From assembly GCA_963801355.1 (NCBI GenBank), contig CAWDEM010000004.1:1344001-1408000 (forward strand): a stretch of DNA of 64,000 bases, in the 5' to 3' direction. Source of the DNA: Ignavibacteriota bacterium. Its GTDB lineage: Bacteria > Bacteroidota > Ignavibacteria > UBA10030 > UBA6906. The notes under the pieces are model-generated. The model saw only the letters and a list, made by a program, of their open reading frames with translations, was not told where the DNA came from and made no database searches. The translations under genes and the position numbers were made by a program. Below are positions 8 through 6,487 of the stretch, piece after piece. Every line of letters begins with the position of its first letter. The first letter of the stretch is position 1.

Positions 8-1906
8 TCAAAGTCCCTTCAGCACGCGCACATCTTCGTGCCGCTCGGTGAACCCATTCCTGTCCAGGTATTCCAGCAGGGGAACTACATACTTGCGTGT
101 CATTGCCAGATGCTGCCGGAGCTCACTGGTTGTGCCCTTGCCATGGATGCGCAGGTACTCGCCCAGACGTTTTTGTGCCTCTGTGATGCCGTTCCTGTGC
201 ATCAACAGGCCCTCTTCGAGGTGAATCAGATCCCCGCATTCCGTGATGTGTGTGACCAACTTCTCGGCGCCCTTCCCCAGTTCGGCCACAATTTCCCCGG
301 TATCAGGTGGTGTCAGCAGATTCGTGAGGTACTTCTGCAGAATCATGTCCCTGAGTCTTTTCTGGTCGGCGGAGAGGGATACGGTGTGCCCTTCACAAGC
401 GAGCTGCTCTCCATGTTTGACGATACGTGATTCTTTCAGGAGTTCGTCTACGATGATTGCGAGGAGCCGCTTGTCAATGGCCGGTTTGATGCGAGAAGCC
501 AATTCGGGGGCGGGGACACCCACGCGGAGAGGGTTCTCCTGATGAAAACGCGTCAGCGCATCCAGCACGTGCGTGCGGAGGGTCAGCTTGTTGCTGAGGG
601 CAAACCACGTCTTGCCTTCGAGGCAGAGCACGCAACGGCGCTCCTCGAGGACGTGGAGATACTGCAGGCATGTCTCCAGAGGGATCGCTGCTGTCCTAGC
701 AAGCTCAGCTGCGGTTACAGGTGCAACGGCAAATCGCTGGAGTTGCTGCAACACATGTTCTGCTGGGTCGCCTTTGACCGCCTGCTGCAGGCGTTCAAGC
801 ACATCGCCCTGGAATCTCCGGTGTTTTCCGGGCCTGACGTCCAGGACCGTCCCGCCTCCAAGAGTTTGAAGAGGCGAATAACTCCTGAGGACATACCGGT
901 CTCCATCGTCGGCCACGATGGGCCGCTCAAAGTGGAGCTGGACAAAACCCTCCTTCCCGGGCTTCAGCTCTTCCTGGTCGAGAAGGAGGACCCGTGCGAT
1001 GACTTCCGTAGTCCCCAAATGGATGCGGACGCGCGTGCGGTGCTGCAACGGCCCCGGTGCAGTGGCGAGGTAGAGAAGATGAGCATCCACCATGGACGTC
1101 GGGTGGTAGTATCCCGGGGTCCCAAGCACGTCGCCGCGTTCCACAACTTCACGTTCCAGCCCTTGCAGATTGACTGCCGTGCGAAGCCCAATGCTGCTTT
1201 CCTGGACGGTCTGATCGTGGACCTGGATTCCCCGAACGCGAAGAGGTCTGCCGATGGGGAGGAGTTCAACCGTGTCATCCACGCGGATACTGCCCGAAGC
1301 GATCGTTCCCGCGACTACCGTCCCGAAGCCCTTGATGGAGAAGACTCTGTCGATGGGCATCCGGAAGACCCCTTTGTCGGTCCGCTGGCGGACCAACCCG
1401 GCTTCCCGGAGGATGGCGCGGTGCAGCTCGTCTATGCCCTCTCCGGTCACGGCGCTCACCCTGTACAGAGGAGCTCCGCCGAGGAAAGTACCCTTCACCA
1501 GCTGCGCAATATCGGCGCTGACCAGGTCCAGCCACTCCGGTGCCACAATGTCCACCTTGTTCAGCGCTATCAGCCCGCGGGGAATCTTCAGGAGACGGAG
1601 GATTTCCAGATGCTCCCGGGTTTGAGGCATGACGCCGTCATCCGCCGCAACGACAAGAAGGGCAAAATCCACCCCGGTCACACCGGCCACCATGGTTTTG
1701 ACGAACCGCTCGTGTCCCGGGACGTCGATGATGGCCACCGAGTCTCCCAGGAATGCGAACCCGAGGTCGGTGGTCATCCCGCGTTCCTTCTCCTCTTTCA
1801 GGCGGTCCGTATCGATGCCGGTGAGCCTTTTGACAATTGCAGTCTTTCCGTGGTCGATATGTCCCGCCATGCCCATGACTACATGTCGTGTGTGAGGGCT
1901 ACCCAT
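8..1906 (-). CDS. selB: Selenocysteine-specific translation elongation factor SelB
   Basis: GHIDHGKT P-loop, [26 protein letters not shown], and C-terminal winged-helix [13 protein letters not shown]. Start moved to ATG 1906 (MGSPHTRH), overlapping the selA stop. Confidence 0.96.
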
Positions 1907-3305
1907 GGTGCACGACTTCCTGAAATGCCTTGGCAACGAGCTGCACGTCATCGTCGGCAATCGTTCTGCAGTCGAGCAGAAGTGATTGATCCCGTATGCG
2001 TCCGATGACCGGAGTGCTTGACAGGCGGAGCTCACGGGCAAGGCCGTCGGGCGACAGGCCCTCGATGGTGCACGCGACTACTGATGTCGGGAGGGTGGCT
2101 GCGGCGAGCGATCCGCTGCCTACTTCGGCGGTATCTTGTTCCACAGAACATTTCCCGCGGCTCCCAAGAATCGGGGTGAGGAGATCAAGCAGGTGCACAG
2201 CGCGGGCTTTCACGGTATCCTGTGACGCGGTGAGGGAACGGAACACAGGGTGCTCCCGCGCCAGACTGCCTTCATCAAGAAACAGACGGAGTGTCGCCTC
2301 CAGCACTGCAAATGTCATCTTGTCACATCGCAACACCCTGATGAGCTGGTTGCTTTTGAGACGGTCTACAAGTGCACGCTTACCGAGGATGATGCCGCAC
2401 TGGGGCCCGCCAAGAAGCTTGTCGCCACTGAAGCACACGAGGTCGGCCCCGCCGGCAATCGACTCCTGAACCATCGGTTCATGAGGCAGACCCCAGCGGC
2501 GGAGGTCAAGAAGGGCGCCACTGCCGAGGTCGTCGATGGCGATGAGGTTGTGCTGGTGTGCGAGCTCGGACAATTCGTGTATCGAAACCTGGCTGGTGAA
2601 GCCGACGATATGATAGTTGCTCTGGTGAACTTTCAGTATCACTGCGGTTTCGGGGGAGACGGCGGCCCGGTAGTCTTTAAGATGGGTACGATTCGTTGTG
2701 CCCACCTCAACAAGTCGTCCGCCGCTGCGTCGGAGGACATCAGGTATGCGGAAAGAGCCTCCGATCTCCACCAGCTCACCGCGTGACACAATGACTTCAC
2801 GCCCCTCCGCAAACGTGTTCAGTACCAGAAGTGTGGCCGCTGCGTTGTTATTTACGACAACGGCCGCTTCTGCTCCGGTGATCTTCCGGAGCAGATGCTC
2901 GACACTCCGGTAGCGGTCGCCGCGTTTGCCGGTGTCGAGATCCAGTTGCAGAGTGCAGTAGCTGCGGACTGCATCTGTCAGGGCGCGCTGCGCGCTGCGT
3001 GCCAGCGGGGCGCGCCCGAGGGCTGTATGAAGAATTACGCCGGTCGCATTGACGGCCTGCCGGACTCCCGGCAGGAGATTGCGTTGAGCCCGGTCCATGA
3101 TCTCGCCCAGGATCGCATCGTAGGAACCTACTGTTTGCAGGTGTCCGTCGCGGATGCGCTCGCGAAGACTCTCGAGGTATGTGCGGATTTCATCTGCCAC
3201 AAGTTCACGCGGATAGTGTTCCAGCAGAGGAGCCAGTCGCCCATCCTCGAGGAGGAGATCAACCTTGGGCAGCTGTTGAAACAGATCGTTCCGGGCCTCG
3301 CTCAT
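1899..3305 (-). CDS. selA: L-seryl-tRNA(Sec) selenium transferase SelA
   Basis: NATGVILHTALGRAP, VVNNNAAA, SRGELVEIGGSFRIPD, EVGTTNRT and the PLP lysine motif FSGDKLLGGPQ. Start taken at ATG 3305 (MSEARND). Confidence 0.97.
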   Translation of the reverse strand: MSEARNDLFQQLPKVDLLLEDGRLAPLLEHYPRELVADEIRTYLESLRERIRDGHLQTVGSYDAILGEIMDRAQRNLLPGVRQAVNATGVILHTALGRAPLARSAQRALTDAVRSYCTLQLDLDTGKRGDRYRSVEHLLRKITGAEAAVVVNNNAAATLLVLNTFAEGREVIVSRGELVEIGGSFRIPDVLRRSGGRLVEVGTTNRTHLKDYRAAVSPETAVILKVHQSNYHIVGFTSQVSIHELSELAHQHNLIAIDDLGSGALLDLRRWGLPHEPMVQESIAGGADLVCFSGDKLLGGPQCGIILGKRALVDRLKSNQLIRVLRCDKMTFAVLEATLRLFLDEGSLAREHPVFRSLTASQDTVKARAVHLLDLLTPILGSRGKCSVEQDTAEVGSGSLAAATLPTSVVACTIEGLSPDGLARELRLSSTPVIGRIRDQSLLLDCRTIADDDVQLVAKAFQEVVHHG

Positions 3306-4197
3306 GAGAAATGCCCCAGGTGACGGAGACATGTTTGCACACCGTACACTTCAAGCAACGGATACAGTCGGGCGAATTCGGATCATCCGAAATTTTGATG
3401 TCCACCGGGCAGACCTTCACGCAGAGATCGCAGTCCGCGCATTTGCCTTCGACATGCATGCGCATAAGACTGACACGATTGAAGTAGGCATAGATTGCGC
3501 CCAGCGGGCAGAGTGCGCGGCAGAAAGGTCGTTTGATCAGGATGAACAAGACGAGGAAGATGCCGAGAATAGACAACTTCAGGACATAGAGCCATCCCAC
3601 CATATCGGGTTCGATCACCGGGGCTCCCAATGCAGGATCGACAGGGTTCCAGAGCATCCAGGGAATCCCGGCGATGAGTGTCCCCCAGGGGCAGATGCGG
3701 GAGAACCAGTGGTCCTCTGTGAGCAGGGGGAGGAGAATTGCGAGGACGGCGAGCGAAAGAAACTTGCCGGATTTGAAGAATCGGGGCAGGCGTAACTTCA
3801 CACTCGGGATCTTGTGGATGGTGTCCTGAAGCCAGCCGAAGGGACAGAGCCATCCACACGCCGCGCGTCCGAACAACATGCCAATTGAACCGAGCATGCC
3901 GAGCAGGAAGAACGGCACTTGCCTGATTGCGACAAACGACTGCAGGATACCGATGGGGCAGGCCATGAAGGCTGACGGACAGGCGTGACAATTCAGAAAG
4001 GGCACACACCCCTGTTTGAGGGGGCCCGCATAGATCTGCTTGGTGAACGCGACGGGGTAGTAACCGTTGGAGAGGATGAGGCCGATGCCCACAACAATGA
4101 AGAGCCGGATCTTACGGAGTCTGGAGTAGAGCGGCCTGCTCTCTCTGGTTGTTGCGGGATGTTCCGGGATCAACTGATCCCGATGCAGTCCAGTCAT
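3259..4197 (-). CDS. Membrane 4Fe-4S-binding protein (NapH/YccM/RdxA-like polyferredoxin)
   Basis: Several TM segments with NCHACP..ACPIG, CGWLCPFG and FCRALCPLG motifs, plus C-terminal CADCDLCVKVCP and CIRCLKC ferredoxin motifs. Start is ATG 4197 or TTG 4173. Confidence 0.88.
   Translation of the reverse strand: MTGLHRDQLIPEHPATTRESRPLYSRLRKIRLFIVVGIGLILSNGYYPVAFTKQIYAGPLKQGCVPFLNCHACPSAFMACPIGILQSFVAIRQVPFFLLGMLGSIGMLFGRAACGWLCPFGWLQDTIHKIPSVKLRLPRFFKSGKFLSLAVLAILLPLLTEDHWFSRICPWGTLIAGIPWMLWNPVDPALGAPVIEPDMVGWLYVLKLSILGIFLVLFILIKRPFCRALCPLGAIYAYFNRVSLMRMHVEGKCADCDLCVKVCPVDIKISDDPNSPDCIRCLKCTVCKHVSVTWGISHERGPERSVSTAAQG
4165..4182 (-). promoter_or_regulatory. Bacterial SECIS-like hairpin
   Basis: CGGGAUC-AGUU-GAUCCCG is a perfect 7-bp stem starting 11 nt after the UGA, with GU at loop positions 2-3. 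Confidence 0.8.
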
Positions 4198-4328
4198 AGC
4201 GTGGCGCTTTCGATGCGGATCAACGTCAAGTCTCCGCCCACGATTCCCAGCGCCAGCAACGTGATGAAGAGCAGCATCAGGACGATGCGCACTCCCCAGT
4301 GCACGAGCAAAAGGCCGGCCATCTTCAT
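4170..4328 (-). CDS. Small membrane selenoprotein, UxxC form of the CD1871A-like CxxC peptide family (52 aa, Sec at TGA 4196-4194)
   Basis: Reading through the TGA gives [52 protein letters not shown], then TGA. This matches the C-L-x-C-I-G-I C-terminus of small CxxC peptides found before such 4Fe-4S genes. A SECIS-like hairpin and selA/selB lie downstream. Confidence 0.85.
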
Positions 4329-4352
4329 GGCGATCTCGCTCTGTGTGGAGGA

Positions 4353-4381
4353 AAAGTACGAAACGGCAAATACACACGCAA
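4353..4381 (-). promoter_or_regulatory. Sigma70-type promoter of the selenoprotein-4Fe-4S-selA-selB operon
   Basis: TTGCGT, 17 nt, TACTTT on the minus strand; predicted transcription start about 18 nt before ATG 4328. Confidence 0.55.
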
Positions 4382-4453
4382 GTTGCATCTTGTTGCGGCC
4401 TTCCGCACTTTATTATAGAGAACAGACCCTTTCACATGGGCGGGCCAATTTCG

Positions 4454-6487
4454 ATGCCATTTACGCTCATTTCCGACTATTCGCCGTCGGGTGACCAGCC
4501 GGATGCAATCCGCCAGTTGAAAGAAGGCGTGATGCGCGGTGACAAACACCAGACCCTCCTGGGTGTGACCGGCAGCGGCAAGACATTTACCATCTCCAAC
4601 GTCATTGCACAGTTGGACAAGCCGATCCTCGTTCTGTCGCACAACAAGACTCTTGCGGCGCAGCTGTACGGCGAATTCAAGAATTTCTTCCCGCGAGACC
4701 GTGTGGAGTTCTTCATCAGCTACTACGACTACTACCAGCCGGAGGCGTACGTCCCCTCCACGGATACGTACATCGCCAAGGATGCTTCCATCAACGATGA
4801 AATTGACAGGCTCAGACTGCGGGCGACCAGCGCATTGTTGAGCGGTGACCGGAACGTCCTTGTGGTGGCTTCGGTGAGTTGCATCTACGGCATCGGCGCG
4901 CCGGAGGAATGGGCAAGCCAGATTGTCGTGGTGCGGAAAGGTGAAAGGATCGACCGGAACACGCTTCTGCGCAAGCTCTTGAATATCTTCTACATGCGAA
5001 ACGACTTCGAGTTTGTCCGTGGCACCATGCGCGTGCGGGGCGACGTGGTGGAGGTCATACCGGCGTACGAGAACGAAGAGGCGGTGCGCATATCGTTCTT
5101 CGGCGATCAAATCGAACGCATTTCCTACATCAACAAACTCGACGGAAAAGTGCTGGGAGACACGGACTATGAGGTCATCTATCCGGCAAAACAATTCGTG
5201 ACCTCGCGGGAAACCATAGACGAGGCGGTCAAAGGCATTGAAATCGAGCTCGAAGAGCGGCTCGCGGAACTTCGCACCCTCAACAAACTGCTTGAGGCAC
5301 AGCGTCTCGAACAACGCACCCGGTTTGATCTCGAAATGATGAAAGAAGTGGGGTACTGTTCCGGGATTGAGAACTACTCCCGGCACCTTGCCGGAAGGCC
5401 GCCGGGCTCGCGGCCGGCGTGTCTGCTGGACTATTTCCCCAAGGACTATCTGGTTGTGGTGGATGAGTCGCATGTCACGATTCCGCAAATCGGGGGCATG
5501 TATCACGGCGATCGCTCGCGCAAGGTGACACTCGTCGAACACGGCTTCCGGCTTCCGTCCGCCCTTGACAACCGTCCGCTGACCTTTGACGAATGGGAAC
5601 ACCTGGTTCCCCAGGTCATCTATGTGAGTGCGACACCGGCCGACTATGAACTGGCGAAGAGCAAAGGCGTCGTGGTCGAACAGGTCATTCGTCCGACGGG
5701 ATTGATTGATCCCTCCGTGGACATCCGGCCCGTAAAAAATCAGATCGACGACCTGATTGCGGAGATCCGCACGCGGGCGGCCACGAAGGAACGCGTCCTC
5801 GTGACCACACTCACAAAGCGCATGGCGGAAGACCTCACGGACTACCTGACCGAAATCGGCATTCAGGTGCGGTACATCCACTCCGAGGTGGATGCGCTGG
5901 AGCGCGTAGAGATCCTCCGGGATCTTCGGCTCGGCGACTTTGATGTACTGGTGGGAGTGAACCTGCTGCGCGAGGGACTTGATCTCCCTGAGGTCTCCCT
6001 GGTGGCGATTCTGGACGCAGACAAGGAGGGGTTCTTGCGGTCCGAACGATCGCTCATACAGACCGCCGGGCGCACGGCCCGGAACGTCAACGGCCGTGTC
6101 ATCATGTATGCCGACAAGATCACCGGTTCGATGCAGCGCATGATCGATGAAACAAACCGGCGGCGGGAACGACAGGTGGCCTACAACACCGAGCATGGCA
6201 TCAACCCGGCGACTATTTTCAAATCGGTGAATGACGTGCTTGCCTCAACCGCGGTCGCCGATGTCAAGGCACAACGCGATGCCCGGCGCGAGCGCTCGAA
6301 GATGCCGAAAGTCGCCGAACAGGTTGTCCGCTATCTCACACCCGACCAGCGTGCCGACCTGATCGATGAGTTGCGGAAGGAAATGCAACAGTCGGCTAAA
6401 GACCTGGAGTTTGAGCGCGCGGCAAACCTCCGTGACGAGATCCAGAAACTGGAAGCCCTGCAGGGTTCGAAGCACAAAATGGACTAG
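4454..6487 (+). CDS. uvrB: Excinuclease ABC subunit B
   Basis: [44 protein letters not shown] and C-terminal UVR domain. Start at ATG 4454. Confidence 0.98.

Follow-up and report, generated by a model that had tools for sequence, protein, structure and literature searches.

Does a short minus-strand open reading frame (ORF) end at its first UGA, as gene callers have it, or does that codon specify selenocysteine (Sec)? The question is raised by a 64,000-nucleotide stretch of an Ignavibacteriota bacterium (assembly GCA_963801355.1, contig CAWDEM010000004.1, positions 1,344,001 to 1,408,000 of the forward strand; hereafter the window, and its genome G000), in which the ORF stands ahead of genes for a 4Fe-4S membrane protein (the partner) and for Sec synthesis and insertion. 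Read directly, the minus-strand frame runs ...GCC ACG CTA, TGA (4196-4194), CTG GAC TGC ATC GGG ATC AGT, TGA (4172-4170), and translation with the first TGA as Sec (U) gives 52 residues, MKMAG...IESATL-U-LDCIGIS, laid out as a membrane anchor followed by a tail of ~24 residues, with Sec 8 residues before the C-terminus. The initial annotation, made from the letters alone, had proposed this continuation, a perfect hairpin 11 nt past the UGA, and Sec in place of the first Cys of a redox motif; direct reading bears out the continuation and the 52-residue product to the base, the hairpin is there as described, and the assignment of Sec finds support in all the computational tests that were named for it. 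The membrane peptide, which gene callers truncate at the UGA, is in all probability a genuine selenoprotein. To judge from the sequence comparisons below, UGA 4196-4194 is very likely decoded as Sec, the product being a UxxC form of the CD1871A-type peptides with a CxxC tail.

Conservation on both sides of the UGA

Homologous loci were collected by scanning all species genomes with a profile of the partner, and the resulting 66 loci were rescanned for the peptide with a hidden Markov model (HMM), reading TGA through. A UGA-form peptide was found in 15 of them (L044-L054, L056, L075, L102 and L104), so that the window makes 16; five more (L057-L061) carry a Cys-form peptide, the UGA column being TGC or TGT, and the remaining 46 held nothing convincing as a peptide under this rescan. 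The 16 UGA-form genomes span several phyla and all share the seven-codon tail. The Cys forms come from metagenome-assembled genomes (MAGs) of Clostridia, Melainabacteria-type and Riflebacteria lineages, and their proteins end ...IC(T/L)(Q/S)CIG(I/L)(G/Q). The (C/U)xxCIG tail is thus conserved in homologues, which do not end at ...ATL.

At the codon level, the internal codon is TGA in 16 of 16 UGA forms, and the terminal stop varies (TGA in 11, TAA in 3, TAG in 2). In the 14 main-clade sequences the mean entropy of the seven tail codons is 0.21, 0.05 and 1.01 bits at codon positions 1, 2 and 3; codons upstream of the UGA show the same phase (0.78, 0.65 and 1.50 bits), and the value past the hairpin is 1.72 bits. 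Codon-phase conservation therefore runs through the UGA, which argues that the tail is translated. Could the conservation instead reflect the coding region of the partner? A relative of another genus (G007, one of 40 relatives; its locus is the same place as L045) answers this. Its partner gene is 65% identical, the upstream sequence reads ...RIESGTL-TGA-LDCIGIG-TGA, and, starting at the TGA, 21 bases agree exactly with the window. No ATG lies across its first TGA, and the partner, whose frame relation is also different, begins beyond the second stop; partner coding therefore cannot account for the conservation of the tail.

The same pattern emerges from protein databases. An exhaustive HMMER search of 1.84 billion protein representatives gave 32 matches, of which 15 stop exactly at ...TL or ...SL (profile position 44) and 14 are Cys forms with the C-terminus C(L/M)(E/D)C(I/V)G(I/L)(G/S); the rest are P0015, in which TGA was called as W, and two long proteins. 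P0015 is a 61-residue public protein with both TGA codons given as W, and these W residues are an annotation artefact of a TGA=Trp code. Counting loci and database entries, Cys aligned to the UGA was found in five loci and 14 proteins, and the UGA itself in 15 loci beyond the window, as the initial annotation had expected of a Sec gene. Other searches returned little: a word-index protein search with the 52-residue product retrieved only the truncated ORF of the window, a six-frame scan of G000 with the CD1871A model NF040920 missed the locus and gave noise only, and a peptide profile built from two sequences, run against 401 genomes of the phylum, returned G000 plus 24 genomes with weak matches (E 0.0036-0.1). 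No tail was seen at the six weak loci that were motif-scanned, two of which were also translated.

In a partner tree of 19 rows, rooted at midpoint only, nine UGA-form partners fall in one clade (support 95/97), and L102 and L104 stand beside the Cys-form L057 (92/89). Since UGA forms occupy separate places in the tree, at least two Cys/Sec switches must have occurred. This bears on the suggestion that the gene is simply decaying after a nonsense mutation in the first Cys codon of a CD1871A-type gene, for which a single base change, TGC or TGT to TGA, would suffice. The comparative data effectively refute it: the same TGA recurs in 16 genomes, several phyla and two separate clades of the partner tree, its tail is under purifying selection, and a hairpin has co-evolved with it.

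A hairpin at fixed distance from the UGA

The putative selenocysteine insertion sequence (SECIS) consists of a spacer (4193-4183), a 5' arm CGGGATC (4182-4176), a loop AGTT (4175-4172) and a 3' arm GATCCCG (4171-4165), forming a perfect 7-bp stem. The SECIS of E. coli fdhF has an 11-nt spacer. In the window the 5' arm codes for Gly-Ile; the true stop falls in the loop and 3' arm, together with non-coding bases, and since the ORF closes within the loop, half of the element is left outside the coding sequence.

A hairpin starts 11 nt past the UGA in 16 of 16 UGA forms. Its commonest stem is GGGAUC/GAUCCC, with GGAAUC/GAUUCC in L049 and L050, GGGGUC/GACUCC in L051, UGGGAUC/GAUCCCA in L047 and, unrelated in sequence to the others, GGGCCU/AGGCCC in L102 and L104; apical loops are AGUU, GGUU, GGGU, GGAU, CGGGUA and CGUGU. 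Covariation links the third, synonymous position of the Gly codon to a base in the non-coding stretch beyond the stop. Over the 6-bp core stem, 90.6% of 96 cells are paired (16 sequences), against at most 66.7% when the 3' partner is slid; both sides have changed at two pairs (five cells), and the observed pairing was reached by 1 of 500 shuffles. Counting seven pairs over 15 sequences, 85.7% are paired. No hairpin is found at the corresponding position in the five Cys forms (L057-L061). The expectation that the hairpin would be conserved among UGA homologues is thus answered by its constant distance, its compensatory changes and its absence where the codon is Cys.

The bacterial SECIS (bSECIS) model, as given in the accessible part of a 2026 review (PMC13188914), asks for a loop of 3-9 nt with a G among its first two bases, a stem of 4-16 bp, a UGA-to-loop distance of 16-37 nt and a minimum free energy (MFE) of -7.5 kcal/mol or lower. 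The window hairpin falls within this description (loop AGUU, 7 bp, 18 nt, -16.4 kcal/mol). Like fdhF-type elements and the bSECIS consensus, it sits directly 3' of the UGA and has a small apical loop with an early G(U/G); unlike them, it is a short simple stem that has no bulged U and lies half outside the coding region. It also resembles the SECIS of the G000 selD gene, which has a 7-bp stem and an AGGUU loop and starts 14 nt after its UGA. An E-value scan of 4050-4400 against Rfam gave no relevant family and none matching the hairpin. A terminator was ruled out, as no U-tract stands behind the stem and a terminator scan made no call. In a separate observation, the four Sec-UGA sites recognized in G000 (the peptide, selD and two redoxins described below) all have 7-bp stems and G-U-U loops (AGUU, AGGUU, AGUUG and GUU); the G-U-U loop may be a SelB recognition signature of the window lineage.

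A simpler possibility is that the UGA is an ordinary stop, the gene product a 44-residue peptide, and the conserved stretch behind it a non-coding element for translational coupling or mRNA stability. Gene callers do end the ORF at this UGA, and TGA is the commonest ordinary stop in G000, closing 1018 of the 1849 frames that are 400 codons or longer, selB, gap and pgk included. Moreover, ATGA overlaps are common coupling devices, and an ATG (4197-4195) overlaps the first TGA of the peptide gene. The initial annotation had drawn attention to this overlap as a reason why callers would miss the extension; it exists in the window, yet it is incidental, being present in only five of 16 loci (window, L048, L075, L102 and L104) and hence not conserved. 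An ordinary stop is, besides, hard to reconcile with a three-base periodicity that lasts exactly seven codons and then ends, with the existence of the same tail as protein in Cys-form homologues, with an invariant internal codon beside a variable terminal stop, or with a hairpin that is missing where the codon is Cys and has no U-tract. We regard this possibility as most unlikely.

Relationship to the CD1871A family

Where does the peptide belong? The curated model of the CD1871A family, NF040920, passes 13 of the 14 database Cys forms (cutoff 32 bits), and three UGA-clade sequences other than the window's gave no match to it. A profile comparison with hhalign of 13 UGA-clade peptides and 17 Cys forms yielded a probability of 99.3% and E 4.4e-20 over 46 columns, end to end, with the UGA column aligned to the first Cys; C stood in for U in the profile, and this raises the score at that one column. 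Because hhalign matches the UGA clade to the Cys forms while the clade falls below the NF040920 cutoff, the peptide is predicted to be a divergent Sec-form branch of the CD1871A-type family that the curated model misses. On this point the initial annotation needs a correction, as the peptide itself falls short of the cutoff of the model.

Both groups are small proteins with one transmembrane (TM) helix bearing a conserved Gly, an acidic turn and a C-terminal tail of fixed length, (C)x(E/D)C(I/V)G(I/L)(G/S). In the loci collected through the partner, members of both groups precede a gene for a NapH-like 4Fe-4S membrane protein. They differ in the UGA that replaces the first Cys codon in the window clade and in the segment ahead of the motif, which is ...(I/L)ES(A/G/S)TL in the UGA clade versus ...KAxx(I/L).

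A selenocysteine island headed by the peptide gene

The peptide gene opens an unbroken Sec cluster, in which genes for the partner, SelA, SelB, a double-cubane reductase, its activase, SelD and tRNA-Sec follow in this order, so that selA, selB, selC and selD all lie together with it in G000 (Table 1). The genes beyond the window are on the same strand: a double-cubane reductase (NF040772, 390.5 bits, cutoff 350), its ATP-dependent activase (TIGR00241, 231 bits) and, further along, a selD with its own in-frame UGA and a tRNA-Sec gene (67.9 bits). The selC and selD genes that a Sec reading presupposes are therefore present. The order peptide, partner, selA recurs in L044-L051, with selB next in seven of these eight loci, and a double-cubane gene also follows selB in the L044 and L045 genomes. 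More broadly, 14 of 16 UGA-form genomes proved to carry selA (the window's, eight by adjacency and five elsewhere in the genome) versus one of five Cys-form genomes, in line with the expectation that UGA homologues would track Sec-using genomes. Among related genomes, selA and the peptide-partner pair occur in the same two of 41, and in none of four genomes of the same genus that are 93-97% complete; the cluster thus has the patchy distribution of an island, and it looks horizontally mobile.

Table 1. Location of the peptide gene, its elements and the associated genes (positions in the window unless a locus is named).
Feature	Position	Strand	Remarks
Predicted 52-residue single-TM selenopeptide gene	4170..4328	-	start ATG 4328, terminal stop TGA 4172-4170; direct reading, 15 homologous read-through ORFs
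In-frame UGA, putative Sec at residue 45, first UxxC position	4194..4196	-	TGA invariant 16/16, Cys in homologues
Putative SECIS hairpin CGGGAUC-AGUU-GAUCCCG	4165..4182	-	11 nt after UGA, 18 nt from UGA to loop
NapH/MauN-like partner	3259..4197	-	start ATG 4197 or TTG 4173 (uncertain); profile scores and invariant Cys columns
selA, L-seryl-tRNA(Sec) selenium transferase	1899..3332	-	TIGR00474 584.6 bits, cutoff 267.9; directly downstream of partner
selB, Sec-specific elongation factor, expected hairpin binder	8..1906	-	TIGR00475 360 bits, cutoff 242.25
Double-cubane reductase and activase, between selB and selD	L112:8716-10011, L112:7914-8732 (G000:C4)	-	
Two signal-bearing AhpC/TSA-Redoxin proteins, predicted UxxC	L113:4866-5663, L113:1944-2684 (G000:C4)	-	7-14 kb past the island

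This arrangement invites the idea that the ORF is a Sec-sensing leader, in which decoding of the UGA sets whether translation terminates at the first or the second stop and thereby controls translation of the partner, selA and selB. The selA-selB operon does open with the peptide gene, both in the window and in L044-L051, and start codons lie over both stops in the window, the ATG over the first and a TTG (4173-4171) over the second. A leader would not be expected, however, to be homologous end to end to Cys-form proteins, which cannot sense Sec, nor to occur away from sel genes as the UGA forms of L052-L054, L102 and L104 do; the start-codon overlap is not conserved, and the tail is under selection at the amino-acid level. 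A leader as the primary function is improbable, and a secondary regulatory role of the ORF may exist in the window clade.

Alternatively, the UGA could be read through without Sec, by near-cognate insertion of Trp or Cys or by a local change of code. Near-cognate UGA read-through is known when Sec is limiting, and P0015 was called with TGA as W. Against this, TGA is the commonest ordinary stop in G000 and there is therefore no genome-wide reassignment; a SECIS-type hairpin is kept at the canonical distance, the UGA forms track selA, and the site is the redox Cys of a CxxC motif, a classical position for exchange between Sec and Cys. Read-through of this kind is a very remote prospect.

Weighing the selenocysteine reading

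Several observations count against decoding as Sec in a CD1871A-type peptide or restrict what the comparisons can carry. The window hairpin taken by itself has z -2.03, with 9 of 200 shuffles folding equally well; because a single sequence is only moderately unusual, the hairpin draws its significance from the comparison across genomes. In that comparison the sequences are related and provide few independent covariation events, and sliding the register by -1 gives almost the same covariation score (0.240 versus 0.254). The 45-nt folds are weak in three of 16 loci (L052 -6.4, L075 -6.7 and L053 -7.5 kcal/mol), and the stems of L052 and L053 contain an internal mismatch. A selA gene was not found in the genome of L052, a single-cell assembly in which the best selB-like match is below cutoff, nor in that of L075, a fragmented MAG whose contig ends where selA would sit; conversely, one Cys-form genome does carry selA. 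The window peptide scores 11.7 bits against NF040920 (E 0.18, cutoff 32), matching profile positions 2-37 of 38. Finally, the peptide lies beside a 4Fe-4S membrane protein gene in 20 of 20 peptide loci, all found via that partner, so that this adjacency holds by construction, and the 14 database Cys forms carry no genomic context; the earlier remark that CD1871A-type peptides precede such proteins agrees with the loci seen, with the same reservation.

Taken as a whole, an account built on a selenopeptide and its SECIS at the head of a Sec island is the best explanation of the locus, and we hold it with scarcely less confidence than the decoding of the UGA itself; the redox relay that completes this account is held much less firmly.

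A predicted family absent from the catalogues searched

Whether Sec forms of this family had been catalogued was a question left by the initial annotation. A full-text literature search for CD1871A or NF040920 found no paper, and neither NCBIfam release 20 nor Pfam has a model that captures the peptide. The Sec form is likewise absent from the catalogues searched: it does not appear in Table 1, on known and predicted prokaryotic selenoprotein families, in the available part of the 2026 review (PMC13188914), in the accessible portion of deep-Sep (PMC12013277), or in the BSepDB paper (PMC13326102) and the portion of its supplement at hand, where the full supplement may possibly contain an entry. 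The consulted part of the Haft & Gwadz preprint does not mention it, and PMC5029168 was uninformative. A search for literature linking NapH-type proteins to exported redoxins gave nothing relevant by title or abstract. On this basis the Sec form of CD1871A-type peptides, with its canonical bacterial SECIS, is put forward as a new predicted selenoprotein family.

The family would be one that standard annotation systematically truncates, given that 15 database entries end at the UGA. The peptide would also be among the smallest selenoproteins, with a SECIS that contains a true stop codon, and it gives a first clue to the function of the CD1871A/NapH-like gene pair, so far uncharacterised. The compact and patchy island (2 of 41 related genomes) couples Sec biosynthesis, probable client proteins and a double-cubane reductase. 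In the available text of the Haft & Gwadz preprint, the double-cubane class is statistically tied to another selenoprotein system and has no known selenium link; the link with selenium is thus statistical and not mechanistic.

The partner and a proposed redox relay

Besides two CxxxCP motifs, the partner has a Cys-rich loop, GCVPFLNCHACP...CP, and, at its C-terminus, a 2x[4Fe-4S] ferredoxin domain. The loop, which follows TM1, is invariant: GCVPFLNC(H/Y)(A/S)CP...CP. Profile scores are 56.3 bits for TIGR02163 (cutoff 213.05) and 54.9 for the NapH equivalog (cutoff 234), both below cutoff, and 55.7 bits for the Pfam family Fer4_5 (cutoff 22), Fer4-type families being the only Pfam matches. In a PDB sequence search, solved relatives covered the C-terminal ferredoxin domain only. 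In architecture the partner resembles NapH, MauN, NosR-C and CcoG, whose multi-TM core carries CxxxCP motifs (Fer4_5) and leads into a 2x[4Fe-4S] domain; it departs from them in lying far below the NapH cutoffs, in its additional invariant Cys-rich loop and in being associated here with no nap, mau, nos or cco genes. Its relatives are present in all 66 loci, 20 of them with the peptide upstream.

What could such a pair do? Genes for AhpC/TSA-Redoxin proteins lie directly upstream of the pair on the same strand in L052 (two), L053 (one), L054 (two) and L057 (one). When read through, these redoxins are UxxC in five of five cases at UGA-form loci, and CxxC at the Cys-form locus L057. In G000, two signal-bearing redoxins of the UxxC type lie past the island (Table 1); their Pfam domains extend across the UGA (54.5 and 59.2 bits), they have SECIS-like hairpins with loops AGUUG and GUU, and the same two redoxin types are encoded in L052 and L054. 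They came from a crude SECIS-pattern scan of G000 (299 and 73 candidates) from which selD and the two redoxins were chosen by eye and then examined with Pfam; the scan does not discriminate by itself and may have missed other selenoproteins of G000. The peptide had been considered as the only client selenoprotein of the island, an idea dropped once the two seleno-redoxins were found. In addition, the archaeal locus L089 has a fusion of the TM+CLSCI module to a thioredoxin domain beside the partner. Charges in 32 peptide sequences are uneven, with 104 K/R versus 20 D/E in the N-termini and 50 versus 83 in the tails, so that by the positive-inside rule the (U/C)xxC tail should lie outside the cytoplasm.

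The recurrence of the pair with exported redoxins, whose redox motifs switch between CxxC and UxxC together with the peptide's, points to a membrane-spanning redox relay. The decoding that precedes it belongs to the firmer part of the account: SelB carrying Sec-tRNA(Sec) very likely binds the hairpin 11 nt downstream and recodes the UGA as Sec, and translation then stops seven codons past the Sec at the stop within the hairpin. In the proposed relay the peptide would insert with its N-terminus inside and its UxxC tail on the outer side of the membrane (N-in/C-out) and pair with the co-encoded NapH-like 4Fe-4S membrane protein. Reducing equivalents could then pass from the cytoplasmic ferredoxin domain through the partner to the UxxC of the peptide and on to exported TlpA/AhpC-type redoxins, which in Sec-using genomes would themselves be UxxC selenoproteins. 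In the window lineage the pair would have become the first two genes of a patchy Sec island.

DsbD and CcdA supply electrons to exported redoxins of the TlpA, ResA and Etrx types, and the proposed role is analogous: a membrane module that would reduce extracytoplasmic thioredoxin-fold proteins encoded alongside. The partner differs in containing no DsbD_TM domain (PF02683) by Pfam scan, and the route envisaged here would lead via 4Fe-4S clusters, CxxxCP motifs and a separate CxxC/UxxC peptide and not through a thiol cascade within one protein. The UxxC thioredoxin-fold selenoproteins (Prx-like, TlpA-like and Redoxin, listed in Table 1 of PMC13188914) similarly have Sec for the N-terminal Cys of CxxC; Cys homologues are common, and the bacterial SECIS lies just past the UGA. 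Redoxins of this kind stand beside the peptide gene in L052-L054 and close to the island in G000. The peptide is distinct in having no thioredoxin fold and in a SECIS that spans the stop codon, because Sec is only 8 residues from the C-terminus.

Other results speak against the relay. The AlphaFold2 model of the partner monomer, built on a 13-sequence alignment, is poor (mean pLDDT, the predicted local distance difference test, 57.3). Redoxin genes are not adjacent to the pair in the window's own clade, and the neighbours in L102 and L104 are other than redoxins. G000 also encodes DsbD/CcdA-type proteins (DsbD_TM matches elsewhere, on C8), and for this reason a test based on DsbD/CcdA absence is uninformative. 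We give a relay in which an N-in/C-out peptide and the partner reduce exported redoxins somewhat less than an even chance. It is rather doubtful, although conceivable, that peptide and partner form an unrecognised Fe-S transmembrane reductant conduit, a functional counterpart of DsbD/CcdA feeding exported TlpA/AhpC-type redoxins, that the relay of three or four genes switches from Cys to Sec as a unit and that in Ignavibacteria-type genomes it was captured at the head of a mobile Sec island in which a double-cubane reductase is also encoded; if so, the island would bring its own selenoprotein clients, and perhaps a reductive route of selenium acquisition, along with the Sec machinery.

Neighbouring genes and partner variants

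Divergent from the peptide gene is uvrB (window 4343-6487, plus strand). The region of ~120 bp that the two share has no match to a sigma-70-type promoter, as expected for a Bacteroidota-type lineage. Among the partner homologues, an N-terminal ferredoxin fusion occurs in L054 (L054:1895-3400:+) and L055, and a 538-residue form in L102 (L102:2105-3718:+) and L104 (L104:2039-3652:+), where a gene for a DUF6029 porin-like protein precedes it and genes for a lipoyl-synthase-like radical SAM protein and a major facilitator superfamily (MFS) protein follow. In Thermoplasmatota (L089:3315-3908:+, L091:3315-3980:+ and L063:1800-2414:+), a TM helix with a CL(G/S)CI module, resembling the peptide, opens a longer ORF beside the partner. 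In the Asgard archaeal loci L100, L101 and L103, an EF-Tu/SelB-like gene is found upstream of the partner homologue, on the strand opposite to it; its product shares ~35% identity with the window SelB over ~390 residues and may be either an ordinary or a Sec-specific factor.

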